From Blasia pusilla (lineage: Eukaryota): a stretch of DNA of 64,000 nt. Under the pieces are notes generated by a model. It was not told the origin of the DNA. It ran no database searches and saw nothing but the letters and a program-made list of their open reading frames with translations. Shown here piece by piece: positions 17,669 through 39,393 of this stretch (positions are counted from its first letter, which is position 1; the number at the start of each line of letters is the position of its first letter). The stretch covers positions 13,950,001-14,014,000 of the forward strand of contig CM114271.1 of assembly GCA_050084515.1 (NCBI GenBank). Reading direction: 5' to 3'. The translations under genes and the position numbers were made by a program.

Positions 17669-20600
17669 TCACTGAGGAGGCACAAAGAATTCTAGCTCAT
17701 TTGCTCGTCGATAAAGAATTGTAGACGCTTCAAGCCTGCAATCCAAATCCCGCCAGCAGCACAGTAATCAACAACCCACGTCCATCATCAAAGAGAGCCT
17801 TCGAAAAGCACAAATTCAAGGATACTCAATCTGGCCCCTAGTGGACAAAAGTTTCCAAGAGCTCCACTGTAAGAAATCCAACATACCATGCTGGTCGGAC
17901 TACGAAGCGCCCAGTGGAGAGTGCCCAATTAACCTGCACAGATTAATAAGTATTAGATCATTCATACATCACTAATAGACAATCTCCAGGCGTCTTGTTC
18001 TCCATTAGAGGGATTGTGACCCCCATGGTGCTTCAGAGTCACCAGAACACGCGTAGTGCCCCTTACTCTAAAACTTGTCCTGTCAGAGGGAGCAAATCAC
18101 CAAGTGTTTACCTTGTCTGTTCCTGGAGATATCGCCACAACATGGGTGACCTCGTCATCAATTTTCGTGGTGCAAATGGCCCCAAATTGCTCTGCAGTTC
18201 GCCAAAGAGGATGAAGATGGGGTTGAGCTTCACCAACAGGAAAAATGCGGCTGAAAACAACTTTGCACCCAGCTAAGACCTGGCGTTGCTCTGCTGCAAG
18301 TATGTCCCGCACATCTACTTCCCTTAACCGTTGGTTCTCGAAAAACCTCTTATGAATTCTGTCAACTACCTGTATCAGACAACCAAGAAAAAGAGAACCT
18401 TCAGACTTCCACTGAACAATAAAATGTATTCATTTGAATGATGATGGCAGCAAATTGACCCCTATATCGTATCAAAATATACGCAAATCGAAGGTAAGAA
18501 TGCAAACCGTTAAGACCGATGCAATCATGCCATCAGCTTCTCTCTCATCATGTCCTACTTCTAAAAGTGAGGGACCCCCCAGTCCAAACTGACGCCTGCT
18601 GCAAGGAAAATACATATATCTGCCAGATAAAAACAACAAGAACACCTGTCATGAGATACTTTCTTCTTTTGTTCAAATGATGGACAAAACTGAAAAACGT
18701 TCATTAGCATTATCAGCAGTGAGAAACTTGTGTTCCAGCTTACCTTTCAACAACTATGAGATTAGGGCTGTGATGAGGCCAAACTCGAGCTGAATCATCA
18801 ATGATGAGAACAGCAGATTCCATCCCAAGCACCCCATCCAGATCTTTGCTCTTTGGCAACACATCATCACCATCACCATCATCACCTTTTGAAATCACCC
18901 TCCCCGCAAATAATGTCCCAGTGGGATCCAAAAGCTTTGCCATCTCAGTTGCATACACTTTGTTACCCATGGTGTATACATGAAGCTCAAACAGCTGACT
19001 TGCCTGCAATTGTAGATGAGGTCCAGAAAACACAAGGATCAGATTCCAGCATGGTAAAGAGATTTTCACCCAAACGGTTCGACATCCAAGTGACACATAC
19101 CCGTGCAAGGAACTTCCATATGCCAGGACGCAACTTGGTCCACATGCTCATGTGAGGAAACCTATACAGCTCCCTTTTCTCCAGGCTCTCTCTATTAACC
19201 CTGCTCCGCTCTGCAGCTTCCGCACTGCGAAGTCGATGCTCCCATTCTGGTTCGATTTCTGAAAACTGAAGCACATCAAAGTTGATCAAGGCAACAAATC
19301 AGGAAGTCACACCTCCTACAGTCTGTGGTTCCAGCCTCACGATCATCAGGTTGAGGGACTGGAGACAAGGAATTGGAAGGTCCACAAGTGCATTTGGAGT
19401 AAGATCTTGTACCTTTGCAGAGTTAAGTAGTGTGTGATCAAGATCTAGGACTAGACACAATTTCCCCGCAGTAAACATTCGATCTTGCTCTTCCATTCTC
19501 CTCTCCCTCTCTAACTGCACTGAACGACGCTCCTCTTCAGGAAGCTCTTCCAGCAGCTTTTCCAGACTAGGGTGCACTTGACTTGCACCCCATTGTCCAG
19601 GGCGCCATTTAGGCTTCCTTGATCCTGTTCCCAGACTTGAAGACTTATCCACCTGAGGCTGGGAACTTTTCAACTCAATCGAGACTCCAGACGCATCTGT
19701 ACGAGTAAGGATGTCATCAACATTAACTTCCCCAGGAATCTTCCCAGCATTAAGCTCGGTAGCACCTGTGATTGAAACAAATTGAGCTGTTCCAGACTGA
19801 ATAGGTTGTTTGCCTTCATTTGAGGATGGCAATAATGAGGGGTTCCCACCAACCATTCCTGCTAAACTAGCTAGCTTTTCCATAAAATGGGGTGCAATAT
19901 TTGGCAAGGCTGTAGCCTGCAGGGACGTCTGCATCACTTCTCTTTCTTTCCTGGCAGTTGGCCCCTGATCATCAATTGTGCTTCTACCAGCTGAAGACAA
20001 CTCAACAAAACCACCTTCAACACCATTACTCAAATCTACCAGAGCCACACCACCATCTCCTCGCAGTATATCATAAGCAGAGTTATCAGCTCTTTCGACA
20101 CTACTTTCCAGAAGGGCTCGACGAGGATCTCTGGGCTTCATTTTCCGCTGACCAAGTTCACCAGTCTACAAAACCACACACTTAGATTAGCTCCAAATAA
20201 GCAAGTTAATCAATCAAGGAGACCAACAATATGTCTCAAGCATCTACCTTCACCTACTGAAAATAACCCTTCTAAGGGGCACACTGCCTTATGGCCAACT
20301 CTCTTGTTTTGTAAGGTTATTTCACAGTAACCCTGATCCAGAGAAGGCCCAACACAAGCAAGACTTACTTGCTGACCAAGATCCACCTTCTGCCACATAG
20401 TCTGCTCGAGACTATTTAGTAAATCCTGGTGAAGAATAATTGCCTTGCCCCCGCCATTCATCTTTTCATCAATCAGTGGTCCCTTCATGTCTGGTGGCAC
20501 CACGGATAGAACCTTTTCATCCACCTCCATCGCTATTGGTTCCTCATCTGATGTTGAGAACATTGGAGAAATATTATCATCTAGCCAACCTCCTAGACCT

Positions 20601-23600
20601 GTTGATGCATTTACATTTTCTTGTTCAAAATTCTGAAGCTCAGTTGTTCTCTCAGCTTGGAACTTCTGTCGCTTAGTATTTCCAGGATCTTGGTTCTTAT
20701 TCCCGTCATGCACAACACGCTTTCTGTTCACCTCATTTCCTATCAAACGAGCATCTTGGAGCGCTTGCTTCTCAATTGAACTCATAGGATTGATTGGATC
20801 CTTATCAAAATCTACTGATGAATTCTGGAGTCGCCTTCTAGGGTCACGACTCTTGAAATTTCCCTTCCCTGTAAGTGAATATGCTACATTTTTCATAGAT
20901 TCAGGTTCTTCGGACTCCCGAGTAGGCGAGGGCAGCATAGTAAAGTCTGCAGATTTAGCCCTTGGAAATTTTGGTTCATTGAGAGGAGTTGGGGAATCAA
21001 GGCTTTGATTGCAAGTCACATTCTGATTTGAAGTGGCCAAAACGTTGGGAGATACCAATTTTCCAACCCAATGTGACTGCTGGAAACTGGATTGAGTAAT
21101 GTCTGAGACTGATGTGACTATCTTCATTTCCTTGGAAGGTGGTAGTGGGCCAACTGAAACGTCCTCATTTTCATCTGATGGAGTTGGACTAGGCAGTCGG
21201 TCAACGGAGTACAAGGAAGTGACCCCAACGTTCTTCTGATACGGTAATAAGGTTCCGATGTCATGCCTGGGCGGCCATGGTTTCCCTATGATAGACTCAT
21301 CCTTAACCACTTGTCCCTGCACTAAAGCTCCAGACACAGGAACAGAGCATGATATTCCAGCACCTGCCGGACTTAACTTCTCCCATTCCTCCTCCTGCAC
21401 ACTGTAGTTCTTAACAGGCTTCTTGTATCCTGGTGGAACATTTGGATTGTCCTGCTGTGAGGAACTTGCTGGAAGGCCGACATGTGCCCTCAACTCAACA
21501 GAGTTACCAGTAAACCCATCTTGAACAATTTTCACTGGCAACCGGTGGTCAGCTTCACTCCAGGGCTGATATCTTGCCATTGAGGAATTGAGCGTGGCTT
21601 CTGGATGGAGAGCAACCGCTGCTTGATCAGAATAGTGAACCTGAGATGATCTCTCTGAAAGCCAACCCCAACCATTAACTGGACCTGAAGATCCACCAGA
21701 TCGGCTGCTATGTGTACTACCAAAGAGAGAATTTGTACGGGAAGCAGCAGAGCTTTGGGCATAGGCAAGAGCCGCTGCAGCAATGGCAGCAGCTTCCTCT
21801 GCTTGTTTTGCATCGGCAAAGCCAAGAATTCGCCCACCAATGTTGCCATCAGAACTCTTCTTCTCCAAGGTATTCTGCTGTTTCGTTGTTGGAAAGTTAT
21901 GTTCCACAGTCTCTCGTTGCTTCACATCTTTTTCCTTACTCTTCTTGGATGCAAGAAACTGGTGCTCCCGTGGATACTGGACCTTCTCAGCTGCATCTCT
22001 AGCATAGCGTCCAGTAGTAGGCATTGTTTGCATCATTACCTCCAGCTGCACAGACAACAGTCCAACGAAAAGTTAATACCACATGAACAATTGGACAGCC
22101 CAAAATCCGGAAACATGTAGAGCACTGCGTATCGGCTTCTGTAAACTGAACTTATTGTTAGAAGGAACCTAGATCTCTTCTATGTTTCCCTCAAAGTTAA
22201 TAAAACCATCAAATCTTAGCCCACATTGCTTTGCCAGAAATCTAGCCGGCGCTTTTCATTTCTCACCTCACGAGTTTGCTTGGTCGTGAAAAGTTTCTGA
22301 CAATAACCATTAGCAAGCTCCAGCAACCTGCAGAAGACTACGTCAGCGCTGCCGCAATACACACTCGAATAAGTCGTTTGACCAAAAATGAAATGAGGAC
22401 AGAGAAAGTATATTTTAGCAGACCTAGGGAAAATGTTCTTGTCACGCTCTTGCTCTATTCCACTTGCTGTGTTGCGAACCTGCCACGGACCAGACATATC
22501 CATTAATACTAGCCACAGATGTCTCGGTCCTTCCTCTACCCGGTACAAGTATGCAAGTTACGATGCAGCTGTTTCGGGATCAAGTTCTTAATCCCTTACA
22601 GCATAGACAGCTCGAATGCCTGCGAATGCCTGCCTAGCAAGGAGGGAGATTTCGCGAGGAGATCCTTCCAGGCGTCCTTCCTGTTCAACAGATTTCCTTG
22701 GAGTGTGAAACTCATGCAAGAGTCTCAATGCTTTGTAAAGCCGGTCGCATACATCAATAAAGGACCTGCAAAGCATGGGGTGAAGTCAGCAATTCCAGTG
22801 ATCACCATTGGGCCCTGATAGCACATGTAAATAGCTTAGTGGCAGAAGCAAGGACACAGCGAAAATTCATCGAGTTAAAAAATGAACCATCGAAACGGAT
22901 TCTAATGCCTTCATCTCCTTCTACTTACTTTTGGGCATCCTTCACTGTCACATTCTTCACCAGACTAGTTGCCGAAGCTAGACGCCTCTTTCTTTCATAA
23001 TCCAGAGATTTAGATTGCCGGCTTCTACGTGAAGAGTAATCGTCTGACGGAGACCTGGAATTGGAGTAGGCTTTCAACACGGATCTGCTGTACAGGTTTC
23101 CTGCATCCTTGTCTTTTCCAGAGTAGTAACCTGAAGTCTCTGCATTGGACTTCGTACTCTGACGACTCAGATCTGGTGATTCCTTGGATGGGGAAGAGGC
23201 TCCGGCGGGCACTGAACCCAGTTCAATTTCCCCCTCTTCAAGTTCTCCTTCTTCACGATCCTCTGCGTCATTTTCTTCACTTGCCAAGTGAACTGCCGCA
23301 TCTGATGAGGTTTTGCCACTCTCGGTGAGTTCGTCAAGTCTCCCATTCGGGCTTTGAGACTCGGATCGTCTCCTCCGATCCTCAGCCTCATACTCTCCCA
23401 CATCTTCGCCCTCATTCGCTTCTCTTTCGACTCTCCCACCGAGTCTATCTTTCAACGAGCGCCTCTCTGAGACGCCCCAAGTTTCCTTTTCAAAACAGCG
23501 CAACCGCCCTCGCCCTGAGTCCGTGCCGCGGTTGTTGTCTATCGGTGACAGATCATCACGATCTTCAGAGGACCTCCCAGGCCTTCTGTAAAGCTCCATC

Positions 23601-24184
23601 TCGCGACTATAATCCCTGGCCACATTCTCTGCCGCCCAGCCTCCCGACCCTGGCGGTGCTCCGGGGTTTCTCTCACCTCTAGAACTTGTTGGGGTCGGGG
23701 AGTCGACGGGAGGAAAGCTCGGGCGACCCGAAACGGCCTGTGCCCAGGCAAAGTTGTACAGATTGGAACCATAGGCACCATTTGGAGGATTGAAAGAGGA
23801 CTTATCCTTCCTCCACGAAGGCTTGTCTTCCCCCCAGCCCTTCCTATCGTGACCATCGTCATCGAGTTTACCCTGTTCTCTTGAATCTCTTCCCTCATGT
23901 CTGAAAAAATCCGTCCGCTTTCTACTTTCCGATCTAGTAAGCTCACCTAATGCCATCAAATCATCAAGACTCACTCTTCTGTGCAACAGAGGCACATCCT
24001 TGTTCTCTTGTTCTTCCTGCTCCTGCTTCTCCTGCCCTGCTTCCTCGTCATCCTCCCCCTCCCCATCATCAACCCTAGACTCGGGCTCTTCAGACACGGA
24101 GGCAGGGGGCTCTTCGTCTGAAATTTCCCCTTCCTCATGCTCTTCCAAACACTGATCGTTGGGGCTAGAGACTGTTTCTGCCAT
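17669..24184 (-). CDS. CPL3: RNA polymerase II C-terminal domain phosphatase-like 3 (FCP1-type HAD phosphatase plus BRCT), 12 coding exons
   Basis: KLCLVLDLDHTLLNSAK (DxDxT), MWTKLRPGIW, LHVYTMGNK.YATEMAK.LDP, IIDDS..VWPH, BRCT region GCKVVFSR...THVVA..PGTDKVNWA, N-terminal EEGE motifs, YNFAWAQAV and RDPRR motifs. Approximate exons: 24184-22929, 22765-22600, 22479-22424, 22327-22267, 22045-20369, 20165-19413, 19265-19101, 19003-18744, 18619-18508, 18369-18112, 17933-17887, 17735-17669. Confidence 0.93.
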
Positions 24185-25482
24185 TACAATCAACTGTTGA
24201 CAATCCCTAAAAGATGGCCACGCGCAGAAGCGGATTCTTGCAACCCGAATGCCCGGCGTCAAAGAGAGACTAACCCCTGCTGAGATCGGGTCGATAGAAA
24301 CCTACACACTCCAAGGAGAGTGAGTATCTCCACATTTCCCATTGCACCTCTTTGGACGTAAGGCCACATAATTGAAGACCACACTTGTTCTCCCTCTACG
24401 CGACCCCCATCCACGCCATGTGATCCAAGTCAAATCGATCCTTACCCGATGTTTTACAAGCTGCCTGCGCGATGTGTCTTGTTTATATTCGTTATTACAG
24501 CCTTATGTTCATCTAGCCAGCTAACTCTTGTCTCCACATCCCTGTGTACAAGTTATCTTCGGCCGCTTCTTTATGAACGCACATTCGACCCATCCGCCTG
24601 CACGGAGTCTCGGTGCACGACCCTAAGGAGACAAAACCGAGGACACGGCACGTCTACTCGTAAGGAATCCTATCCGAGAGTGCGCGGATCAAAGGAGCGC
24701 CTCTACATCCTCCGCTCTTGCTCCGGAGCGGCTTCCTCAGGAGGGCGGCAGTGATAAAAATCCCACACGAGGGACCCATTCCAGTTCCACAGGCATCGAA
24801 TCGCGTCGGCACGCGGTTTCTAGTCGAGGGGATGGCGTGGGCTTGGCTAGGCTTTCGCTGATGCAATCACAAACCGTGGAAGGCAAGCGGAGCGATCGTT
24901 GTATCGCGCCCAAGGGTGCGTTCTGCCACACGGACAGAGGAGAGAGACTACTGGTAAGGCTCACTCGCAGAGAAGAAGAATGAGAAAACCAGAGCGCGAG
25001 AGGGAAGAAGGAACGGAGAGAGCAAAAGCAGTCGCCGGTCGAAGGGGAAGCGTGCGCGTGTGGCTCTTCCGGGGCGGACTGACGGAGAGAATGAAGGCGA
25101 GCATGTGCGACTGGACATGCAATTGGCTGCTTCTCTGTCATGCGCCTCCGACTCGTAAGCACCGGCATAGAGGTGGTGGTGGTGGTGGTGGCCCCTCACT
25201 CCCCGAACGTCACTCCCGCCTCCGGTTAAAAAATGAGTTCCCGGCATTTAATAGAGGGACTAATGTGGATTCAAGGGTTATTTAGGGTAATGCAGCCGGT
25301 TCTCAACTAACGCAGTAAGGCCCGAATCCTGGTTTGGTTTACCTCAACCCTCGCTCCTGGGTGGGAACCCAAGGCGTCTCGGATACCATAGACTCACTAA
25401 ACCCTCTACTAGCATCCCACTAGGCTCCGAGCGGGTGTGCTCCGTCCACACGCCCGCCAAGTAAATGCCGGGGACGCCCTCC

Positions 25483-25735
25483 GAAAGCCATAGATAGCCG
25501 CGGCCATGCGTTTAAGGCCGCGTAGACTAGGCCTTAGGTGCAGGCGGTTCGGCACGGGACTAGGGTCGGAAATACCGGCAGCGGACAGCGGATATCGACC
25601 TTCAAGGACGGATGGACGGTTGGACGGACGTATGGACGGACGGACGGACGGACGGACGGACGGAGCTTCGGATGGACGGACGGACGGACCCGAGACGGAA
25701 GGACGGATGGACGGACGTATGGACGGACGGACGGA
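25483..25735 (+). repeat. Left TIR plus subterminal (GGAC/GGAT)n array
   Basis: GAAAGCCATAGATAGCCGCGGCC...GCGGACAGCGG, followed by a ggac-rich tract at ~25606-25735. Confidence 0.93.
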
Positions 25736-25868
25736 ATAAATTCCGTCCCTGTAGTTTTCCGTTCCGTATCACACTCCGTCCGTTCGTAATTCCGTTCCGT
25801 ATCGCAGTCCGTCCCCTCATCCATACTCTCCCGCCATCCCGTTTTGAAAAAACAAATTCAGCGTCGTC

Positions 25869-26005
25869 GGTTTACCATGCGGATTAGCAAATGCTTCAGA
25901 ACCGCTCTTCGTGTTAGGGTGGATTCACCATGCGGATTAGCAAATGCATCAGTACCGCTGTTCGTGTTAGGGTGGGTTTACCATGTGGATTAGCAAATGC
26001 TTCAG
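25869..26005. repeat. ~53-bp tandem repeat, about 2.6 copies
   Basis: accatg(c/t)ggattagcaaatgc(t/a)tcag occurs three times. Confidence 0.88.
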
Positions 26006-26809
26006 AGGAAGATAGGATTAGCGAGGATCAGATAGGGAGGTTCGGGAAGGTTGGATGAGTGAGTATTGAGAATCAATTTTGGATTAAGAAGAGCCTTCGT
26101 CGATCAGGGATTGGATGTTCCGAAATGTTCGGGCATTGGATCTGAATAGCTGCGTGTTTGGATTAGCTAAACGTAGAAGAAAAAACCATAGTCTGACGAA
26201 TAAAAAGGCTCCAATGTGTTTGGCTCCAAGCTGAACATTCTACTTGACTTGAGTACGTTTTATAGTATTATTAGTGGCGATTAAGTATCATTTTCGGATT
26301 AAGAAGATTTCGGATTCCTAAACGTTCGGGCATTGGATTAGCTTCGTGTTTGGATTAGTTAAACGTAGAAAATAAAACCAGAGTTTCTTCGAGCTTTTGA
26401 CGGATAAAGAAGGCTCCCATCTGTTCGGTGCGCAGAGCGAATGAGCTGAACCTCAACCTGAGTACGGTTTATACTATGATTTGAAAGGTATGTATCTCTA
26501 CCCCTCAAATTTGTTTTTTGTAGTGGCAGCAGAAGCTGGTTTCTCGTTATGCCCTTTGTTTGATCAAAAGAAGTCTTCCCTTAAACCTGAGTTTATGTAT
26601 TTGAAAGCATGATGTACCTCACTGCTAGGATTTCACTGATATATGGATGATACTAAGTATCGCTAAGTAATCCCTATGCATGCTTCGTGTGTTTTTGGTA
26701 ATTAGGAGGAAATCTGCATGTCCGAACACAGACCTCATTGTGTTCTTCTTTTCTTCTTGTGATTGGCAGCTTCTCAAAGCCCTCGCAAATCTGTATCCAC
26801 TCTGTCACC

Positions 26810-29800
26810 ATGGTGAAATACACAAAATATTCCACTACATTACAATGTGATACTATCCAGACCCCACCGCCTGGTCCTTTTTTAAGAGAACACCTCATTT
26901 GGTATGGTGACCGAAAGGAGGCATGGATTCCTGCTGAAAGGGTACATGACTTCATCCGTGGTGAAGAATATAGACCGCATTATCAAACTACTTTCTGAAT
27001 CAGCAAGACTGATAAATCAGGACACAAGAGTCTTACCATTCGATATTGGTGCGCATATGGACCGCATGATTGTAGGGGTTCGGTTTGGACATCTTTGCCC
27101 AACAAGGTCTTTGACCCTAACATTCGTCGTATAGGGGGCAAGGGTAGCAGGCCAGAAAACCAGAGCACACGCCTTGGACTATCTCAAGGACGCGGATGCC
27201 AATTTCACTTCGCTGTAGTCTATCCATCAGATTGTGTTGGCTTCTGTATGATAAGGCATCTTCATTCAAACCATGTGGACAAGGAAGGTCGGATATGCCA
27301 TGGTGACTTGGATAAGACAGCAGATATTGCAAATGCAATTGTCGCCCCGAAACTAAGTTTGCACTGCAGGGATTTTGTAGAGCGCTTGTTACGAGTGAAT
27401 GTAAGCCCCAAGAATATCACGAAAGAGCATAGGAGGTGGATTCGCGTACACATCCGTGAAAACCCCAATCAAAAACATGCATGGGGTAGGGACGCCATGC
27501 TCAAGCATCAAGACATACTAAATATTAAGCATTCTATGCGAAGGCGAGAAGGGGGATATGACGGAACCGATGACGCTACTGCAATTCATCACTGGGTACA
27601 AGCACATCCTGAGAATGTAATTTACTACAGGGAGGCTATTTCCAAGTTGAACCAGTCCTTTTGCCTTGTACTTTCCACACCTTGGATGCTCCAGAATCTC
27701 TTAGAGCTAGGGAACGGCGGGGCCATCTCCATGGACGCAACCCATGGCACAAACACCTACGAGGTTAGTTGGCCTTGATCCTATCATTATTGTAGAATTG
27801 ATGGAGCCATGGAGCAGGGAACCGGAAATGCTCCTACTTAAGGATTGTTTGAAATGCTGGATGTTTTGAACTTAGTGTAAAGTGTATTCAAAGAATACAT
27901 GATTCAAATGTGTGATTTCCACTACTTTCAATGGACATTATAGGTGAGTCAATGCGTTTATCTTCATCGGTAACCATTCCCTTTTGTGCGATTTTTCTTA
28001 CTTACACCCTGGTGCCTGTTTTCATTTGTCTTCTATTGTGAACATTATGTTATGTGTGTTCACAGTATCAATTATTCACATTGCTGGGTTTTGATAAGTT
28101 CCAGAATGGCCTGCCATTGGTATGGGCAATCCTACAACGACATCAACACGAAGATCTGGTAGAGACCTTGTCCCAAATCAAGGACTGGGCACAGAGGAAT
28201 ATACACTCGAGCATGCAAGATACAGAGGCAAATGAATGGAAGCCTTCATGCTTCATTGTGGATGACTCGAAAGAGGAACAATCTGCTATCCGAAATGTAT
28301 CTCCAGGTGTCCCTATTGACCTCTGCCTATGGCATGTTCGCAAGAACTGGTTAAAGAATCTGCATCAACGAGTGCGTTGTCCAATTACGAAAGCGGACAT
28401 GAACAGAGACTTGGGTGGTGTAATGTACTCACGTGATGAAGGTATATCATCAACCACCCTGATAGTACACTTACATGCTTTTCTCTTTCCCTGGATGGTT
28501 TCCTCCACATACCGCTCAGTGACTAATAAATGATTTGCATATGCCATTGCAGATCCCATCGACGCCTCCTATCGGTTCATGCGCAAGTGGGTTGGATCAG
28601 AACGACACTTTGTGAAGTACTATGGAAGCTACTGGCATCCAAAAATTTTGAACTGGGCCAAGGGATACCGCTAGCACGCAAGGTCCAACCAAGATACGAA
28701 CGCTGCAATCGAAAGGTGGCACCACACTCTAAAAATGCACCTAGCATCCAGCATGCCCACCAAGCCAACAAGAAAACTGATATGGCTTGTGCAAATGCTC
28801 ACTGGTGAAATAGAAGATTTCTTCTGGTACCTAGGCTTCTTGAAACGAGAAGGCATGGTGAGAAACAAGGCCATACAAAAAGTTATGCTCATGGCAATTA
28901 AAAGGGCAAATGACATACCGGATAATCATGTCACATTTGATTTGGTAGATGGGAGGAAATGTGCGAAGGTGAAAAGTATTTCAAAGCGGATGTTTGGCAT
29001 GATGTGGTCGACTACGATACAAGAGATCGCTTGTACATGTCCTCGTACAACGAAGGGTTCACTTGTAAACATCAGGTCTGTCTTCATACCCGTCTTTGAC
29101 GTGATTCAGGGTCTTTACATCAGATTTCAGCAAGTTGAATTCCATCTGTTTTAACACACTCCGTCTGCAGGTAAAATGTCTTCTCCTCTGTGGCCACACA
29201 AAAGTTCAGTTGTTGTCTTGCTTAGGAACTCGCTTTGGAAGCAGAGTGGGTGGGTTTGAAAATTTGGTGCAAGAGCCATACAAGGATGAATTACATGATG
29301 AAGATCAGGAACACGAAGATGGAGATATTGGCCATGAAGGACAAGACCATGTGTTTGTTGAACCTACAGGAAGAGATCCGCCACCAAAAACCACCACCAA
29401 GGATGTTCGAGACATCATGGAGAAATGCCTAAACGCTACCCTTGGGGTTCCATTCTCAGATATGCTCCTAGAACACTTGTTTCAACTAGTGCAGAAGGAT
29501 TTAGATTCAGTTTTGAACCTCAAGGCCAGGGTAGAGACTAACACTCACGTTGAAGGTAATGCTAATGACATTGCCACACACTTTCCTGAGCCGTTTGTGG
29601 GGAATGAATCACAGAACCGTAGCCTGCGTAGGCGCCTAATTTGGCTAGACCTCTTGCATTTAAAACAAAGGTCCCGTGGTCCTGTTAGAACTCAGCCGAG
29701 TTTCGAAGAGCACCAAGTGGAATCCTTCCACAGAGTGAGGAAAACTAAGTTTTTGAACATGGAGGCAGAAATGGAAGGGTCGGCATGTATTAGTTTGGAC

Positions 29801-29848
29801 CTGGTGGCTCTATTGAGCCAAGTTGATGAGACCCGTCCCATGGCTTAA
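26810..29848 (+). pseudogene. MULE DDE transposase with SWIM zinc finger, spliced and disrupted
   Basis: Exons ~26810-27763, 28066-28441, 28553-29075, 29171-29848. Motifs RGCQFHF, SMDATHGTN (D), FIVDD (D), LCLWHV (CxxH), DTNAAIERWH (E), CTC...CKHQ (SWIM). Stops at 26996 (TGA) and 28672 (TAG); frameshifts near 28985-29045. Confidence 0.9.
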
Positions 29849-31365
29849 ACGCAGATTCCCAATGGCCTCTCGGTAAACAAAGACACCTCATAGTACATAC
29901 AGGTCTGCCAATGTCTCAAAGAGGACAAAAGTGGACATTATGCTTGATAGCCTTGCTGATTCATCTATTCCATTAGATTGTGAATTACACCCTGGAGCTA
30001 TAGGAGAAACCAATGACGCCCTAATTATCTTGGACTCTCAAGAAGAAACTCTTGTGTGAAAGCCAATTCAATCTCCTTAAATACTGTGAAGTAAAGCGTT
30101 GTAACGTTTTGTAACACGAAGTAGGAGGTGTTACACGGGAACACATGATATACAGTGTTCTGCATGTTTTTAAATCGAACACCTGAAAACATGTGTTCAT
30201 CCCTTATTATGTTGTGCATTCTTGAATAAAACCTTTTGAATCAAGTTTGGTTTCTACCGCGATGGCAGCTCTGACAAGATCCCATTCGGATCCCGTGGGC
30301 ATTTTTGAATCTCATTTATGCACTTTGCTTCTCAAGCCGGTCGGGCACGCATACCTCGCGCGCGCGCACCATTCCACATCGGAGGCTTAACCACGTACAG
30401 GGGGGCGCAGCTATACTGCGTCGTGTTCCACGCCGTAGAGGCAAAACACCGCCACTTTTGTCATAAAGAGATTCCTCTAAACTAGTTGTAACTAAAGAAG
30501 ATAGGCTTGACTAGAAAAAAAACGCTTTGGACACGCTCCCAACCCTACCCTCGAGCCATGTCCCTCTTCGTAAAGTTTTAGCGGCGTCGACCCTACCACA
30601 GCTAACTTAGTTGACCCTAAATTCGTCGCTAAAATAATCATGTGAAACGAATAGCCGTTAAATAATGTTGAAGTGCAACAACGACTTGTCTATAATACGC
30701 GTATGCGATGATATGTAGTGAAACAAAGCATATGCAAGATGAACATCGCAGCTCCAATGTTCATCTTGTTGAACACCTCACAAACAATGTTCCAAGTCCA
30801 TGGATATGTACTAGGCCATGTTTAGAACCTCAACAAGTATAGAAGACCATCAGTTACAAACCAAACATACAGATTTAGATTGTGGACAGGAGTGGCTTCG
30901 GTTGGTTGAATGCGATAAGTGTGTGAAAATGTCGGGACAAAAACAGATTGTCGACAGGAGTTGCCTGAAAGGGTTGAATGCGATAAGCCATAGAAAATGT
31001 CACCCATACATTGGGAACAACACATATCACAGTATGCACTTCGACTTTTCATAAAAAAGGCAATTGCAGAGTACAAGTGTGATTTCTTAAGTTACATCTA
31101 ACCCTGTGGCAACCCGGGAGGAAAGGGATTGCAACACAGAAAAAGAGTGTCGGCGTAAAACAGATTGTCGCATGTGGAGTTGCTGAAAGGGTTGAATGCG
31201 ATAAGCCATAGAAAATGTCACCCATACACCCCGCATCTGCACAGAACAAATCAACAACCGAACCTTTAAGACATGCCAACATAAATTGCATAAATACAAT
31301 GACACCGTCATTGCAAGAGACTGAAATAAGATTGTCTAACCTGTTTTAGCTTCGTGTTGTAGTGC

Positions 31366-34097
31366 TCAAGGAAGGTCTGCAAAACTCACAAACTCTAGCA
31401 GCGGCCATAGATAAGGAACAAAATTGTCCGACTGATAGCCTCTGTTGGGGTGCTCGATGCAAAACCTGAAGCAGCCGCCGTCCATCAATAAATTCAAAGC
31501 ATTCCATGGCACATCAGTAGGCCCGCGGTTCATCATCAAAGATAGTAAACATTTTATACAGAGTCTGCACAATTCCCAACAGCCGGCTATCTATCACACA
31601 ATGTCCATACACATGTAAATTTACACTCTTGAGTAGGTTCAAAATATCACTATAGTCTATCAAAAGTGTGAAAGAAGTTTTAGAGGCATAGATAGCCGCG
31701 GTTCATGTCATTACATGATGAGGGTGCAACTCTAATGTTGGCCCGCAGGAGCAATGCTCGATGACAAAGTTTCCATATCTAAAGCATCCAATGCCGGAGT
31801 CGAAAAAAGGGGCAGCGGAGTAGAATGAAAGTCTCCGCCATCCACATCAAGACATCTTTGGTCTTCACTTGGCACCGCTACCTCCCGCTGCACCGCTACC
31901 TCCTGTTGTATGTGTCCAGCTCCACCCACCTAATTACCAGCCGAAGTGTCTAAGCCCTAAATTAGCATTGGATAGAAACGAATTTGAAGATCATCAATCT
32001 ACTTAACATTAATTTTTGAAAGGGATGGAACACAACCTGGTCACTTCCGCTAAGCACGCGTTCATTGTCCAAGTTCACAGCAACCGCTACAGGGTGTCCA
32101 TCTCCCGTCGGCGCCTGCTGAAAAGCCACATGAATGTGTGAGGCAAGTACAACTCTTCCAGAAAAAATAAATATCTCAAAGGGTTTAGTATAGGAATGTT
32201 CTGTACCTGCAATCCCGTCTCTAAGTCCGTCTTCTTCTTCATTTCGGCCAGCATGATCCTTCTACTCCTTTTCAAGGACTCTTTAGTTTCTCCCGTAGGA
32301 TACTTGGATCTCACAAAGAGGCTCCCTGCACCACCACTTGGTGCAGGTTAGGCGACTTACGGTATCCACGGGATGCTTGGCCTGACCGATACTACTCTTT
32401 GGATGAAGGCGAGGAGATCTCCTGGTATCACGCGTGACCCTGGAAGATCTCTCCATGGTGGGCCTACCGGATCTAGAGGTGGGTCTTAGATTCCGTGGGT
32501 GCACAATGTTAGAGTCAATTGGCTATTCTGAAAATACAGGCTCTACGTCAGGCCGCCCCACCCTCTCCTCCATCCTCTGTGTTCCTGCAGAATCTGGAGA
32601 TCTATGACCATCATCTAGCGAGTCTGAGTCACTGGAGTCCACAATCTCCATATCCACACCGCCCTGCACACATGTTCACCAAATGACCAATCATCTGAAA
32701 TGCACAAGAGTAGAAAGCATGCATAGAATGTACAAACTTAGCCTAATTTCAATGGAGAGGGATAATTCAAGGACTAGAATGAAAGGACAAGATTTGTACC
32801 CTGGACACAGTATCAGCATGGCTGCAGCCAAGTCCATCCACATACATACGTGTCACTTTCTCTCTCATTGCTGCTTATATAAACGGTTTTTTGGCCTTTT
32901 TCCAAACCCGGTAATTATACTTGAACCGAGGGACAAAGTATTGCTCGCTGATGAACCAGGCATGCCGGTGCGCTCTGCGCATCCCATCTAATACTGCAAG
33001 AGACTGCTCCACTTGTTGTTTTCTAGTCTCTAAACCTGCATGCCATCGAAAAGGTTCCTGCCTATCCATCATCCACACAGCAGATAAGTGGTGGAACGCA
33101 ACTCGACATCTCCAATATGTCGCACGATGTACCCTATCAGCAGGTACGTGGGAAGGGAGAAGCTTATGACCGGCCTCTATCCATCCCCTCACTATGAGCG
33201 TAGGGCGCACCAAAGCACTCTCCAATTCCTCCCTGGCCTTCTCAAACTCCTCCACCTTGGCTAAGCATTCCCATGAGGTTTGCTGGAATTCTACAATACG
33301 ATGAGCTTCAAATGCAATCAGCAGATCAGTAAGTGCAGGCATGGGGACATAAGGCCCGGCAGCCCTTGTGGCATGGTCTTTGGCTTTGTTGAGGATAGCA
33401 TTCTTCTTCTGCCGCTTCCGGTTAACCCAACGTTGCAAGACTGTGCCTCTAAGTCTGACATTGGCAGCAGAAGGATGTGTGTGAGTCCCTGCATAGAAGC
33501 GTGTGTGTGAGTCCCTGCATGGAAATCTGCAGTATGACAGAGATTCTGACCCTTAAGCAAAACCAGGCAATTACATGAGCAAAACCAGGCAAGTACATGA
33601 GCAAAACCAGGCAAGTACATTCGCAAAACCAGGGAATTACATGAGCAAAACCAGGGAAGTACATGAGCAAAACCAGGCAAGTACATGAGCAAAACCAGGG
33701 AATTACATGAGCTAAACCAGGGATTCAATCACATAGTGGACCCACTCTTACCCTCATCTTCCTCGTCATCTTCTATGCCTTGAAAATCAGCATCTGACTT
33801 CTTCTTCCCTGTGATACGAGGTGTTCCAGGCACTGGCCTAAGCCAGTGCGAAGCAAGGTGGGAGTTGAAAGCTTCCGGCATGCGGAAAAATTCAATGCAC
33901 TTGGAGCACAAGCAACGTCTTTCGCTTGTGCTCCTCGTCAGAGCAATAGTGGACCCACTCCATTGGATCCCTCCACAGTGATGTTTGGTAAGCCTGCTTT
34001 TGAGAGGGGGGTGGGCTTTTGCCCATAAACGCAGCAAACATGTTTAGAGGCTCAAGGTAGGAAAGCTCTTTCTCCACGTCTCCCTTGTAAAATGGGC
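31366..34097 (-). pseudogene. MULE accessory gene A: spliced, unknown function, with a C2H2 zinc finger; disrupted
   Basis: A series of minus-strand coding-like segments with GT/AG edges (34097-33751, ~33447-32850, 32663-32207, 31950-31732, 31572-31366). CSKCIEFFRMPEAFNSHLASH at 33908-33846. A frameshift precedes the finger and there are in-frame stops. Confidence 0.55.
33556..33722. repeat. 22-bp tandem repeat (agcaaaaccagg(c/g)aa(t/g)tacatg), ~7.5 copies, in a putative intron of gene A
   Basis: Read directly from the sequence. Confidence 0.95.
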
Positions 34098-34407
34098 CCT
34101 ATGTAACAACATTATCAACCATACAAGTAAGCATAAAATAGTTACCTTGGTCATTGAAAGACAACAGGCACATGATGGGATGTGATTTCTCAGGTGGAAT
34201 TTTATTCACCCGGATGAGAGCATACGCATATCAGGTGTAGGCTTATGTGATAACTAGTAAATATGAAACTAAATAAAATGTGAAGAGCTAGACGCAGGGC
34301 AATGAAAATTCGCCATTCGGAATACTAGTATTCGTAGGACGTGCCCATGACCGCCCAAACAACCCATCTAAAAATTAGAAAGAGAAGCTTATGACCGCCA
34401 AGCTCAA

Positions 34408-34563
34408 GTCGTCTACAAGGTAGACGACTTGCCCATCACCGCCCAAACCCGTCGTCTAAAAGATAGACGACTGGCTTGCCCATCACCGCTCAAGCCCGTC
34501 GTCTAAAAGATAGACGACTGGCTTGCCCATCACCGCCCAAGCCCGTCGTCTAAAAGATAGACG
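34408..34563. repeat. 47-bp tandem repeat, each unit with an 8-bp-stem hairpin GTCGTCTA-N5-TAGACGAC
   Basis: Hairpins start at 34408, 34451, 34498 and 34545; the last has a shortened right arm. Confidence 0.93.
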
Positions 34564-34699
34564 TGGGGCTTGTCGTGATTCTCAGCTTACATGAATACTA
34601 TCCCTATATTGAAGTGGTATATGTAGGTACTTCGGTATATGGTTTACGACAAGAACTAGGCCTCAAAAAGTAAACACAAACCCTAAATCTCCTAAACAT

Positions 34700-36162
34700 T
34701 CCCTAGGATTTCAAGATGCAGAAGATTGTCCTCCACCTGCAAGAAGATGAATCAAGCACACCTCATTAGTCACTTGGTTGAATTCGGTCTACGAAGGAAC
34801 ACAACTTGTATGACGAAAGAGGATGAACACACATGCACTATGTGTTAAGAGCTTACCCCGAGCTAAGTTCATAATGGCCAATGAGTTGATAGCTTCGGAT
34901 AAATCCACATGTTGGTCCTTTTCCAAGTGTAGTTGATCATCAATGTCAGTCTGGTCGATAAGGTAAATCCTTTTAGGAGTGACCCCAATCACCCAATCGG
35001 CTATCTGTTGTGATGCCTCCATTAGATTCTTGATCTCTTGAATCTTGTGGGCTGTCACCTTACCTCCCTTGTCACCAACTACAACAAACTCAGTGTTTCC
35101 TCTTTTCTGGAAATAGGAGTGAAACCAAACGTGATTTCCAACCAACCGTGCTTTCGGACTGAAAGCCACGTGGTACCCAGCATCCCTAGCTGCCTGTTCT
35201 ATGCAATGGTATGTATCTAGAGGGAACCCTAGGATGATCCAATCATCCAAATAACTACAGGATAGTATATGTGTGCGCTTTGCAAATAATATGTGCCAGA
35301 TAGAAATTAGGGCATGAGTTTGTATGAATGATGGGACTCACCCATGTTTCAACCGACCCTTGATTGCCAGACAAGAAACGTGTAACATTTTCTGGTTTAC
35401 TAACTAGCATGTTCAAAGTCTGCATCCCATTTGCATCTAAGAACTGGACATTATTGGACATGATGCGAAAAGTAGTACACTACAAGCCCTAAAACTGAGG
35501 CAAATTCACATTCAAGACCTAGGTCGACGGTAGTGGCAGATTTGACAGCAGCAAATTTGACAGCAGCAAGGAATTTGAACGCTTATGTGCTCCCCTGCAA
35601 GAATTGCAAATCTTTGGTAAGGAACTTGATCTGTGTGAGCCATATTTCTACATCGGAAGACATATTCATACCTACATCAAATATTTCGCTTTCGCAGTGG
35701 GTTGGATCTCGAGTGGAGATATCCTCTAAATATGCCTTGTATTTGTGCAAAGAGAGATAGAAGGTCAGCCCACTGGTAAACATATCATGAGACGGAGTCT
35801 GAATGACTATTTACCTTGTGTCTGTGCTCAAAGAAGTTCCACACGATGTACAATAGGCGACACGATGGTTCTGTATGGACGCTTGGAAGAGAACAAAGAC
35901 AGAAAACGTTCAGGTTTTCTTCTCACTAAAATAATTCATGACAGAGCAGCACAACCAAGATTTGCATCATGCGCCCTACATTACTTGGGCAACTGAAAGT
36001 ATTCATTCAAACACGCTTAAGTTGATATATCCCTCACAACCGCATGTTCAGTAACCAGTTCAAACAAAGTTTGTATACTGCAAATAGATTCAAATATATT
36101 TCCATTGCCTGAAAAGTTGCCACACGTTGTACAATAGGCGACACGATGGAGCTGTATGAACA
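34700..36162 (-). CDS. MULE accessory gene B: spliced, unknown protein; exon structure uncertain
   Basis: An open, protein-like exon ~35254-34858 (LDDWIILGFP...MNLAR|gtaag), a short last exon from 34736 (VEDNLLHLEILGNV*), and upstream coding-like segments including two HRVAYCTxCG copies. Confidence 0.45.
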
Positions 36163-37810
36163 CCTGGAAAAATACAGAAACACCAACCTGGTAATTGTCG
36201 AACAAAGTCAGAAAGAGGAGAGTAGAGAAGAGAACGGGCTCCTTAATTTAGTTCAACCTTTTCACTGAAACTCGGTCTTCGTAGACCGCTGCACATTCCC
36301 TCTATCATGCTCGAGATTTATGACCGTCATCGTCGTGACGACAACGGCTGAGGTGATGTGCAAAGCGAAGTCGTGAAGTACAGAGAAATTCAAAGAAACG
36401 AAGTTTCTCCAGTCCTGCTTCTGTTTACGGTTTCTAAGGAACTTTAGGTCCGCATTAATGGACCTAAAGTTCAGATGTCTGACCTAAAGTATCACTACTT
36501 ATCACTTTGGATCTCCTTATGCTCACTCTACCACAACAGATCGGCAGCCTAGTAAGTTGAGGAATTGGTCAGTTTGTGCTATGATATATCCGAAGTAAAT
36601 GGCTACAATTGAGGTAATTCATGCCATGTTTATCATGCATAGATCAATACTTTAGAGCAGAACTAGAATGCAGCGTGCGTGCATTGGGATGAACTTGTTA
36701 ATGACAGACCTAATCATCATGACTGCAGCCTGTGCATGCCTTTCCCTGACGTCAGGGACAAGCAACGAGAATTAGAAATGAAGCAAATTGAAGTAAAGCT
36801 TCTTAGATGCGTTGCTATACACGATCCGACTTCTGATTGTTGCTCGGAAAGGTTTTCCCTGAAGATGCCAGGGACCAGCCAAGTAGAAGTTCGTTGTTTC
36901 AGTGTTCATCTTGTTGAACACCTCACAAACAGTGTTCCAAGTCCATGGATATGTACTAGGCCATGTTCGGAAAAAAGAAACATCAACATCGAACAAGTGC
37001 ACCCCTAAGGTAAAGTGTTGTAACATATCATGACCAATCATGAATTTGGAGTCTTTTGCTTCATTGGGTTGACTCTTTGGATAGGAGTGGGGAGGAAAGA
37101 GTGAAAGTACTCATTTTTCCCAAAGAATAAATGGCAACCCAACGATAAGTAGGTTTTCTAGACAAGATCAAGAAAAAGAACAATCATCTGATGCAAATGG
37201 AACCTCATGTAAGCTAGAGAGACTTGTCCGTTTCAGACTGATTGTTCTTACAATGAAAACAGTGAAATGCATAGTATTGCTGGTATGTTAGGTATTGTAC
37301 CGAACAATTTTGGGTTTGTAAACGCACATCAAAATCTCACCCATGCTAAGATAGAGCGACACGACGACGACCACCGTCCTATACTCATGTTCATCGGGGA
37401 GAAGACGAAGGTACAAAGTGGAGAAAATTTGACTTTCAAAAGACTATCCAGGCAGCAAAAAACGAGGTCACCTACGGTATTTTGAACGGAAAGTGGACAC
37501 CGATAATGAAATCTTGCCGATAATTACGGTAAAATCACATCGCTCCAAATGTATATCAGTCGCTTATCAAAAAAGGAAGCAGTTAATCCACTTTGTGTAA
37601 TCTACCATCTTCCTACTCTAATGTACTCAGATAACAAGCCGCTTGGAGGCGGGGATATTGTCTCCAACTTACACTCCAAATTATCCCGTAGGAACCGTTC
37701 AATGCTCAAAAGTACATTTCCTTATACGCATGGCCGCGGCTGTCTATGGCTTTCGTCTTTGTCATCGAACAATTTTGGGTCATCTTTGAAGTTCATCCTG
37801 TGTATAACAG

Positions 37811-38021
37811 TAAGCTTGAGAGGTAGAAGGAGGATGAAGATGAAGACAACAACAATGGTATCACAAAGAAATACAAACTTAGCATCAAGAAGAGAGGACT
37901 TCGTTCTGAAGCTCGAGCAGCTACTACAACGGATTTGGACATGCAATTGCTCAGTCCCCTTCAGCAGCAGCGTATGAAGTATAAGCAAAGAAAACGGACC
38001 CTTCAGGGTCGGGAAGAGACT
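37811..38021 (+). pseudogene. Captured host exon resembling the C-terminal region of the CWC27/CYP57 spliceosomal cyclophilin
   Basis: Bounded by cag| and |gtaagt. Translates as KLER*KEDEDEDNNNGITKKYKLSIKKRGLRSEARAATTTDLDMQLLSPLQQQRMKYKQRKRTLQGREET, matching the remembered plant CYP57 pattern KLSLKKKG.GSEA...D.DLQL......Q..K.KKRRLQG.E. Confidence 0.65.
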
Positions 38022-38711
38022 GTAAGTCATGCATGGCTTTGAGTTTCAGAAAGGAGTTGACATTGGAGATATGTCGATGTATTTCCTTCTCGAAGATGAA
38101 AGGATGCGGGTGCAAGCTTGTCCAGAAAACTCTGAAAACTCGACTCTGCAAACTCGACGAATATGCCCACAAAACTCTGCAAATTCGATCTCACAGTGGC
38201 TTCATTTCTCTTCGATTGAATGACGACTGAGCGGCTGATCAAAGAAAAGAGGAGAAGAAAAGAGAATAGAAGAGAAACACCAACCTCATAGGCGTAAAGA
38301 AAGCGGATTTGTGGCGGCGAAAGAAAGCTCTCAAGGCGGATATGCGGATTTGGGCAGGCGAATCAAGCTCTCCGAAGTGATAGCGCACACAGCAAAGAAG
38401 TGGCAGGCCGAATTGAAGCTCTCCGAAGTGATAGCGCACACAGCGAAGACCAAAAAGCCTCAGCAAACCGAAAAGACGCACCGGACCGAAATAACGCCGC
38501 AGACTGGCAGGCAGAAACGAAGCTCTCAAGGCGGATTTGCACATTTGCGGCAGGCCGGGACGAATCCCTCAAGTCGATCGTTGGGACCGAAAAGACGCAG
38601 CAGACCAAAAAAACGCAGCAGACCGAAAACACACAGCAGACCGAAAAACGCAGCAGATTGGGTTTCGGGTTTCGGAGTTCGGAGGTGAGGGTTCCGTCCG
38701 CTCCACCCCGT

Positions 38712-38969
38712 CGTCCGTCCGTCCATCCGTGAGCTCATCCGTCCATCCGTCCGTCCATCTGTCCAGCCGTCCGTCCGTCCATCCGTCCTTCCGTCCTTCC
38801 GTCCTTCTGTCCGTCCGTCCACCCGTCCGTCCTCCGTCGGACTCCGTCCGCTCAACCAAACCGCTGTCCGCTGCCGGTATTACCGACCCTAATCCCCTGC
38901 CGAACCGCCTGCGCCTAAGGCCTAATCTACGCGGCCTTAAACGCATGGCCGCGGCTATCTATGGCTTTC
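38712..38969 (-). repeat. Right subterminal (GTCC)n array plus right TIR
   Basis: Mirror image of the left end. Confidence 0.93.
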
Positions 38970-39393
38970 GACGCCCTCCTCCTCTCCGCTAACAGATGCA
39001 TGCCTTCAAGACTCCGTTCTCCAACTCTTCCATCCATCGCTCCGTCCCTGTTTTCCAGTTCAGCCCCCGCTCTCGGCGCTACGCCGCGGCACTTCTTGGC
39101 TGTCAGGACCTCCCGTCCACTCCACCACCATCCATCGGATCCAGGACTCACCCGCGATTGAGCCGGCCCCATTCTTCGGTCGAATCCATTATTGGGTTTC
39201 ATTAGTAGGGCCGCTCAAAGCTCGGCTCGGATGGAACATGAAAACCAGTATGCCGTTTTGAAAGAAGAAAAGATGCACTTCCATAAAAATGAGTGAGGGA
39301 AAACCCATCGGAAGTACAAAAGAGGGGGACTCAAAGAGTTAAAACCTGAAGGCCACAACAAGACCAGAAAAGGAAAAAGGGGGCATTCCCCCC

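Follow-up and report, generated by a model that had tools for sequence, protein, structure and literature searches.

The window studied here is a stretch of 64,000 nucleotides (nt) of Blasia pusilla DNA (assembly GCA_050084515.1, contig CM114271.1, positions 13,950,001 to 14,014,000 of the forward strand), and all coordinates below are counted from its first letter. It contains, at 25482-38970, what is very likely a single insertion of a two-gene Mutator-like element (MULE), whose transposase, encoded at 26810-29848 on the plus strand, is a member of the MULE subfamily that very probably gave rise to the AT1G60560-like SWIM proteins of flowering plants and to their sister clade.

The element is bounded by two terminal inverted repeats (TIRs) of 110 nt each, the left one on the plus strand (25482-25591) and the right one on the minus strand (38861-38970), which are identical at 105 of 110 positions (5 mismatches). 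On both sides they are flanked by a target site duplication (TSD), which measures 8 bp (ACGCCCTC, left copy at 25474-25481 and right copy at 38971-38978), or 10 bp (GACGCCCTCC, 25473-25482 on the left) if the repeat begins one base inward, at 25483. In the available text of PMC5225508, long TIRs together with a TSD of 8-10 (up to 11) bp are given as diagnostic features of MULEs. The terminal 28-mer of the TIR occurs 3 times in the window and was found in none of 100 shuffles. The TIR pair is flanked by the TSD, and therefore the last-inserted unit is 25482-38970, with a length of 13.5 kb. The transposase gene is positioned 1.2 kb and 9 kb inside the two TIRs. An earlier sequence-only reading of this DNA had described it as a gene between TIRs with a TSD, which is confirmed.

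The transposase gene begins with ATG at 26810, ends with TAA at 29846-29848 and consists of four exons. Exon 1 (26810-27763) encodes an N-terminal zinc domain with Cys at 27050-2 and 27197-9 and His at 27272-4 and 27299-301. A predicted bundle of three helices is also encoded there, as is the catalytic Asp that comes first in the protein (27734-6). Exon 2 (28066-28441) encodes the core of the MULE domain, including the Asp pair DD (28261-6) and the sequence C-L-W-H (28324-35), which is the C-x-x-H motif of these enzymes. The catalytic Glu (28711-3) and the SWIM finger (29032-29072) belong to exon 3 (28553-29075), and exon 4 (29171-29848) encodes a C-terminal tail, 22-27% identical to the tails of liverwort proteins. 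The introns are 302 nt (27764-28065, GTTAGT..CAG), 111 nt (28442-28552, GTATAT..CAG) and 95 nt long (29076-29170, GTCTGT..CAG), and the last of them is a prediction only. The second intron is confirmed by RNA, being spliced in 9 reads of run X21, 7 reads of run X22 and one contig of run X6, with 0 DNA reads, and for the first intron a contig of run X6 (presumed RNA) links 27761 with 28064.

The seven motifs quoted in the sequence-only reading were all recovered from the stop-to-stop frames of the plus strand and their translations at 26810-29848: WIPAERVHDFIRGEE in exon 1, YWCAYGPHD, RGCQFHF, HVDKEGRICHG, APKLS and STPWMLQ in exon 2, and FIVDD in exon 3. Its statement that the catalytic D-D-E triad (DDE) and the C-x-x-H residues are retained is also confirmed: the D, DD, C-L-W-H and E of the window are all present and align with the residues of relatives, and the ligands of the SWIM finger are present. 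Among six pieces scanned against Pfam, only 28066-28440 was recognised (MULE, PF10551, E 1.7e-10, with 41.6 bits where the curated cut-off is 27.6).

The frame of this copy is interrupted three times, by a TGA (26996-26998) in exon 1 and by a TAG (28672-28674) and the loss of 1 nt near 29056 in exon 3; the resulting frameshift cuts the SWIM finger between 'CTCP' and 'CKH'. The coding sequence of the four exons amounts to 2531 nt, 1 nt below 844 codons, and therefore a single frameshift explains the whole reading-frame problem. A short intron that would skip the TGA was considered and rejected, since it would delete a conserved G-E-E block and the reads of other copies have C at 26996. A variant genetic code was rejected as well, because TGA and TAG are both present in addition to the frameshift. 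This copy is a pseudogene, unable to make transposase, and it is non-autonomous because the TGA at 26996, the TAG at 28672 and the frameshift near 29056 break the transposase frame.

Four public sequencing runs were mapped on 24500-40000, of which the DNA run X18 was sampled at about 1 in 100 reads. With both orientations summed, the DNA depth was 1.2 and 1.9 in two bins of the left flank, 6.7-40 across the whole element and 28-40 over 27085-29669. Among the mapped DNA reads (n=3968), 207 were at least 99% alike, 1619 were 95-99% alike and 2142 were 90-95% alike. The family comprises roughly 15-30 diverged copies, a number that is only rough because the depth of the flank is so low.

Reads of the RNA runs X21 and X22 map over the transposase gene, with depths of up to about 9 and up to about 16, respectively. 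The first mates of these reads map to the minus strand, which fits RNA of the plus strand in a usual stranded library and agrees with the GT..AG intron in the same reads. Position 26996 is C in 26 of 26 DNA reads, 18 of 18 RNA reads and one contig, and the window has the T of TGA there; since C stands in all of these reads, the TGA is private to this copy. Moreover, some variants were seen in RNA only, for example 27328 T>A (8 of 8 reads of X21, 11 of 11 of X22 and 0 of 24 DNA reads), and as such variants are missing from the DNA reads, the transcripts derive from a minority of the copies. Sister copies are transcribed and spliced. The word 'surviving', which the sequence-only reading had applied to this lineage, is thus appropriate for the family, which is transcribed, but not for the copy in the window, which is dead by two stops and a frameshift.

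One might suppose that the gene is a domesticated host gene and that the inverted repeats around it are unrelated to it, as it lies 1.2 kb and 9 kb away from them and shares the element with further sequence, an internal TIR tip among it. This is scarcely credible, since the DNA depth is 15-30 times that of the flank with most reads 90-99% alike, the frame carries two stops and a frameshift, the DDE and C-x-x-H residues are kept just as they are among the transposon proteins, a TSD borders the TIR pair, and the gene falls inside the transposon clade with a support of 100/100.

When exon 2 was used as a query, 5 proteins were obtained at E ≤0.001 among 610 candidates, all of them from the liverwort Riccia sorocarpa and with 39-46% identity. 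A search with the Riccia protein P0003 (936 amino acids (aa)) gave 13 proteins among 8000 scored candidates, nine of them from Riccia, P0003 itself included. Outside Riccia, P0003 matched P0010 from Actinidia (E 2.7e-56, 28% identity, 89% of the query), P0011 (E 1.1e-51, 28% identity, 89% of the query) and P0012 from Actinidia, named 'SWIM zinc finger family protein' (E 4.0e-40, 28% identity); after these host-type proteins, the next outside matches were two MULEs at E 1e-13 and 1.8e-12. P0010 in turn found 617 proteins. The best 120 of these 617 share 76-100% identity with P0010, and their lengths nearly all fall within 689-751 aa, except two Actinidia rows of 637 aa, and the species-named rows among these 120 are all from flowering plants, including Magnolia, Acorus and Nelumbo. 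One match of P0010 bears the name 'hypothetical protein like AT1G60560 [Hibiscus trionum]' (P0114), which ties the host family to AT1G60560, one of the two gene ids that the sequence-only reading had named.

When 1.84 billion representatives were searched with a profile, the number of matching proteins was 175 at E ≤1e-30, 1265 at 1e-10 and 3749 at 0.001. According to their best BLAST match, 143 representatives (P0132-P0274) were divided into 37 of the AT1G60560 type, 24 of a sister type, 41 of the clade of the window and 41 of other lineages. In the Atlas, the cluster of P0133 is assigned to Streptophyta.

A profile of nine transposon-clade proteins was aligned by hhalign with a profile of ten host-type proteins, and the two matched with probability 100, E 7.2e-81 and 26% identity over 595 aligned columns, which correspond to residues 22-656 in one profile and to 14-632 in its counterpart. 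Collinearity holds all the way from the foremost conserved block through the SWIM finger. About 300 aligned residues lie before the MULE domain, and because of this the likeness goes beyond what is generic for MULEs. The blocks W-I-P..R..D-F..G-E, Y-W-C..G-P, R-G-C.C-H-F and H.......C-H-G are common to transposons and host proteins; the host-type proteins are 24-31% identical to the exons of the window, and exon 2 itself matches the host-type protein P0133 by BLASTP (1e-27, 30% over 240 aa). The alignment of motifs with conserved plant genes, which the sequence-only reading had proposed, hence extends to homology over the full length. A search of the PDB sequences with the family profile gave 0 matches.

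It may be asked whether this is just the likeness that any two MULE proteins would have, with no special affinity to the AT1G60560-like family. In favour of this, Pfam finds only MULE, PF21056 and SWIM in these proteins, and the trees described below contained no FAR1, MUSTANG or MURA sequence. Such a generic likeness is nonetheless very unlikely, given the E of 7.2e-81 over 595 columns with its N-terminal part outside the MULE domain, the conserved N-terminal blocks on both sides, the drop of the P0003 matches from 1e-56 (host) to 1e-13 (next MULEs), and the failure of the FAR1 and MuDR models to match any of 41 members. From these comparisons, the transposase can be regarded as a real, specific full-length relative of the AT1G60560-like SWIM family.

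The domain models also bear on the other MULE-derived families of plants. In 41 family members scanned at E 0.01, PF21056 was found in 24, MULE in 20 and SWIM in 13, and the FAR1 (PF03101) and MuDR (PF03108) models in 0 of 41; neither P0003 nor P0010 matched the FAR1 model even at E 0.1. P0010 falls below the Pfam cut-off for MULE. A precomputed match to PF21056 is already recorded for a few host members, so the databases hint at the link. In the Atlas, the named clusters nearest to P0133 carry MULE, SWIM, Transposase_mut, PF21056 or the DUF5575/ZSWIM3_N of ZSWIM1/3, and none of them carries FAR1 or MuDR. FRS proteins carry the FAR1 domain. Like the host family discussed here, FAR1/FHY3 (FRS) and MUSTANG go back to entire MULE transposases that became host genes, and they combine a MULE domain with a SWIM finger (PMC8616336 and PMC4948706, available text), and the MUSTANG (MUG) proteins are described as carrying the MuDR domain (PMC8616336, available text). 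The family of the window differs from both, as neither model matches any of its 41 scanned members. The claim that this lineage is distinct from FAR1/FHY3 and MUSTANG therefore holds as far as domain models go.

The nearest relatives found outside the family are MULEs with a plant homeodomain (PHD) finger, P0013 and P0014 (E 1e-13). They share the MULE and PF21056 core, C-I-W-H, DDE and SWIM with the family, but they possess a C-terminal PHD finger, are without the conserved N-terminal blocks and stand outside the ingroup at 100/100. PHD-finger MULE architectures are said to have been described by Babu et al. in 2006, and Rehavkus by Dupeyron et al. in 2019.

The transposons and the host proteins differ in the C-x-x-H motif. 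The window, the Riccia proteins, P0138, P0141, P0151 and P0165 all keep D (in MDATHGTN), DD, C-L/I-W-H, E (in E-R-W-H) and C-x-C...C-K-H. Among 118 AT1G60560-like proteins of at least 680 aa, the first D is kept in 115, while at the second site one D is kept in 117 and the other in 116; the E and each of the four SWIM ligands are kept in all 118; the Cys of C-x-x-H is kept in only 6 (Ser in 105) and its His in only 2 (Arg in 111). The clade that is sister to these proteins (P0133, P0135, P0136, P0140 and P0147) has C/S-F-W-R at the C-x-x-H site and carries the motifs R-V-D-D-F-V-R-G-E-S, H-V-D-K-K-G-L-P-C-H-G and G-F-I-V-D-D. These motifs match those listed for the conserved plant genes in the sequence-only reading, so the sister clade is plausibly of the At4g13970 type.

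The functional weight of this site is known from other elements. Muta1 no longer transposes when any one of its DDE residues is replaced by Ala, and with Ala in place of the C-x-x-H His its transposition falls by 99.5% (PMC5225508, available text); Babu et al. describe the same His as absolutely conserved in the transposase family (PMC1702500, available text). The change from His to Arg is common to both host clades. It marks the two of them as non-transposing and speaks for a single domestication that preceded their separation. Judging from these residues, the host proteins very probably no longer transpose, and the pattern of kept DDE and zinc ligands with a lost His suggests a catalytic centre that was changed rather than lost. 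P0144, P0145, P0148 and P0158 keep C-x-W-H and look transposase-like in sequence. P0149 has S-L-W-R and has lost the E, and P0139 and P0167 are degenerate.

Compared as a whole, the AT1G60560-like host proteins (about 717-720 aa) are collinear with the window from the zinc domain to the SWIM finger and keep D, D, E and the zinc ligands, but they are 76-90% identical across flowering plants, have Arg for His and form a clade of their own; the family of the window lies outside that clade, keeps CLWH, is multi-copy and has TIRs.

The placement of the lineage was examined in a careful tree, built under LG+C20+F+G4 from 31 rows with 673 columns, for which P0013 and P0014 served as the root. Its rows were picked by length; the long-branched P0167, P0179, P0214 and P0244 were left out after the first tree, as were all fragments. 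The ingroup is separated from the outgroup at 100/100. The window, the Riccia group and P0138, P0141, P0151 and P0165 form their own clade at 100/100, and the two host clades come together at 100/99, or at 92/88 with P0149 added. When the window clade (with P0150) was forced together with the host clade (with P0149), the tree lost 19.1 log-likelihood units and was rejected by the approximately unbiased (AU) test (p-AU 0.0048), for which the groups had been chosen with the tree already in view. An earlier AU test (p 2.7e-7) was discarded as badly posed, since it excluded P0149 and P0150.

The sequence-only reading went further and took this lineage for the source of the host family. On that account, the lineage of the window would be the direct source, closest mobile relative or sister of the host family, and the full-length collinearity, the common N-terminal domain and the lack of resolution in the backbone of the careful tree agree with it. 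It would also hold if P0139, P0144/145/164, P0148/158 and P0157 were orthologues of the host genes in non-flowering plants, as the clade of the window would then be sister. It is unlikely all the same: the window falls in a clade apart, together with liverwort sequences, joining it with the host clades carries the cost just given, and in both quick trees the intermediate lineages, among them the C-x-W-H lineages P0144/145 and P0148/158, stand nearer to the host clade than the clade of the window does. The lineage is one of several related ones and its placement as sister is rejected, so it is a cousin and not a demonstrated source. Going by the alignment and the trees, we therefore treat the lineage of the window as a cousin of the ancestor of the host family, which is not established as its direct source.

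The opposite direction, in which the mobile family was re-mobilised from a host gene, has to be weighed at the same place, since unrooted likeness gives no direction and the root depends on two long outgroup rows. It is highly improbable. Around the host clade stand lineages in which both C-x-x-H and DDE are intact, and the MULEs of the outgroup, too, have C-I-W-H; the loss of His to Arg in the host proteins is therefore derived; moreover, the regain of both TIRs and a lost catalytic residue is unlikely, and Joly-Lopez et al. 2016 have a section headed 'ETE Reversion Is Unlikely'. Descent of the host family from the mobile subfamily remains the preferred reading, and the AT1G60560-like family very probably began as a captured transposase.

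The N-terminal module, which lies outside the MULE domain, shows four residues, C125, C176, H201 and H210 (P0155 numbering), that are invariant in 38 of the 38 sequences with a residue there, in the arrangement C-x50-C-x24-H-x8-H. For MULE transposases, Babu et al. 2006 describe a version of the WRKY-GCM1 finger with an 'insert between conserved cysteines' (PMC1702500, available text), and the C..C..H..H spacing seen here fits that version, for which a four-stranded sheet is expected. A model of P0155 based on 40 aligned sequences (predicted local distance difference test (pLDDT) 79.6, predicted template modelling score (pTM) 0.72) predicts a sheet domain that has six strands and is interrupted by a helical insert; a bundle of helices comes after it. 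The sheet domain matched DNA-bound Aft2 (Z 5.6, root-mean-square deviation (rmsd) 2.8, 73 residues) and the WRKY33 domain (Z 4.7, 78/79 residues), both below the trust level of the tool, and in Foldseek WRKY18 (probability 0.80, E 0.13) and the WRKY domain of RRS1 (probability 0.77). Aft2 has the WRKY-GCM1 fold. For residues 224-301 the top match was a phage small terminase (Z 6.2), and among transposase bundles SETMAR/Hsmar1 on its TIR (Z 5.5, rmsd 1.6), Mos1 (Z 5.3) and Tc3 (Z 4.8) were matched; a model of exon 2 of the window gave the same helical bundle. These scores are under the trust levels of the tools, and therefore the fold assignments are leads only. In the model, the N-terminal domain looks WRKY-GCM1-like.

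Taken together, the gene at 26810-29848 would once have encoded a transposase of 843 aa with a C..C..H..H zinc domain, a three-helix DNA-binding bundle, an RNase-H-like DDE core with C-x-x-H and a SWIM finger. By analogy with tested MULEs, the N-terminal zinc and helix module would bind the 110-nt TIRs and the subterminal repeats, and the DDE core would cut and paste the element, with a staggered cut leading to the duplication of 8-10 bp. The copy in the window would be movable only in trans, through the transposase of intact sister copies. The host proteins, which are collinear with the transposase from about residue 14 to about residue 632, would be derived from the same subfamily.

Several points weigh against this account. 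The backbone of the careful tree is not resolved among the clades and the lineages P0139, P0144/145/164, P0148/158, P0150 and P0157. The intermediate lineages could also be host genes of non-flowering plants rather than transposons; if they are, the clade of the window is sister to one large host clade, and the sequence-only reading was nearer the truth. The comparison with FAR1, MUSTANG and MURA was made at the level of domain models only, and DNA binding and catalysis are attributed to the protein by analogy. As for the structure, neither model gave a Foldseek match at E ≤0.001 or a Z of at least 8. The copy number depends on a flank depth of just 1.2-1.9, and the state of the sister-copy frames can be read at position 26996 only.

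The element contains a second gene, multi-exon and on the minus strand (30700-35900), that is, convergent with the transposase gene, with one C2H2-like finger near 33850. Its RNA depth is about 10-65, above that of the transposase gene, and its introns at 32115-32206, 32664-32799, 33489-33751 and 34737-34856 are confirmed by RNA (CT..AC ends, i.e., GT..AG on the minus strand). Like the transposase gene it is multi-copy (DNA depth 14-34). In this copy its upstream exons contain stops and look broken. No match was found above the threshold in Pfam (in pieces) or in the PDB (for its 203-aa exon), nor a usable one in the Atlas. MuDR carries mudrA and mudrB, which are convergently transcribed, and the convergent two-gene layout seen here recalls them; MURB is referred to as an accessory protein (PMC12973397, available text). 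The closest known Mutator-like elements are MuDR of maize, Jittery, Hop, Os3378 and Muta1. In contrast to these, the N-terminal domain of the present transposase family is not seen by PF03108 or PF03101, and its core also matches PF21056 (the RNase-H-like domain of ZSWIM1-3).

The element further differs from other MULEs in the (GGAC)n arrays adjoining both TIRs, and in a second gene with no detectable likeness in the searches. The arrays are about 130 nt long, the left one at 25606-25735 being mirrored in inverted orientation at the right end (38708-38838), and on the left a 53-bp subterminal repeat follows in 2.5 copies (25874-26006); these 53-bp repeats are possibly binding sites of the transposase. 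A 93-nt direct repeat (30735 and 36880) was considered as a long terminal repeat or as the boundary of a nested element and rejected, as the likeness does not extend. The third occurrence of the TIR 28-mer (37727-37754, minus strand) is inside a 36-nt copy of the TIR tip at 37720-37755 on the same strand, 34/36 identical to the right end, beyond which the likeness ends; this internal tip is presumably a remnant of another end. Beside it, stretches of 37007-38019 match longer transcripts from elsewhere (contigs of 3012 and 1375 nt); a GT..AG joint connects 37007 with 37809, and at 37722 some reads diverge. The region 37007-38019 could have been captured from the host, or it could be what is left of a second element.

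The insertion site is in GC-rich DNA (0.55), about 1.2 kb from the upstream end of a set of open reading frames (ORFs) on the minus strand. Some MULEs are reported to favour regions near transcribed genes (PMC12973397, available text), and the site fits this preference, as a single case. The ORF set at 19299-24301 consists of three long open frames (288, 620 and 458 aa), for which neither Pfam nor the PDB sequences gave a match. Between it and the MULE, 24500-25533 is single-copy by DNA depth and weakly transcribed; on the right of the MULE, 38976-40000 is a very abundant repeat with a DNA depth of 165-270, also transcribed. Farther out, two AT-rich inverted arms of about 1 kb (11420-12375 and 43740-44720, 82% alike with indels) enclose 33 kb including the MULE and several long ORFs; these arms may represent either giant TIRs or a different repeat that is present twice. 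Towards the ends of the window, the remains of a retroelement are located at 269-2263 on the plus strand (reverse-transcriptase RNase H domain, E 2.4e-26; PHD finger, E 2.4e-11) and exons for alanyl-tRNA synthetase at 60510-63405 on the minus strand (tRNA-synt_2c, E 1.9e-77; DHHA1, E 2.2e-16). Rfam and tRNA scans of the window gave no match.

In the literature searched, from which subscription journals were largely outside, no account of a transposase origin of the AT1G60560/At4g13970-type genes was found, and in the searchable main texts the two gene ids occurred only in a gene list and in a fusion-transcript database. That published list annotates At4g13970 just as 'Zinc ion binding' in its available part. 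The ids are absent from the supplement files of PMC5715367 and from two of the three supplement files of PMC4948706. According to Joly-Lopez et al. 2016, no gene of Hoen and Bureau 2015 was close enough to MUG or FRS for their trees (PMC4948706, available text). The list of exapted genes of Hoen and Bureau 2015 comprises 67 genes, and only 50 of them were tested in PMC5715367, so the full list may still contain the family. In our judgement it is an evenly balanced question whether the AT1G60560/At4g13970-type genes form, next to FAR1/FRS and MUSTANG, a third and separate case of an entire MULE transposase domesticated in plants. This case, not described so far, would have arisen once before the split of the paralogues and, unusually, would have left the DDE triad under strong constraint. 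The constrained triad would hint at a retained metal-dependent activity on nucleic acid rather than mere DNA binding.

The feature in the window is in itself ordinary, a dead MULE copy, and its value lies in the well-supported homology of a mobile, transcribed family to a strongly conserved plant family. The host genes would count as one more MULE domestication next to FRS and MUSTANG, and as one that screens based on Pfam overlook, with P0010 under the MULE cut-off. Among the proteins met here, the AT1G60560-like ones belong to the best-conserved plant proteins of unknown function, with 76-90% identity from Acorus and Magnolia to eudicots. Their collinearity with a real, transcribed MULE family that bears TIRs and a TSD provides an origin for them, and with it a biochemical frame that can be tested and that consists of a zinc-finger and helix-bundle DNA-binding module, an RNase-H-like core with D, D and E but minus the residue needed for transposition, and a SWIM finger. 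If this is true, the transcribed mobile cousins in bryophyte-like genomes would offer a route to the DNA target of the ancestral protein.

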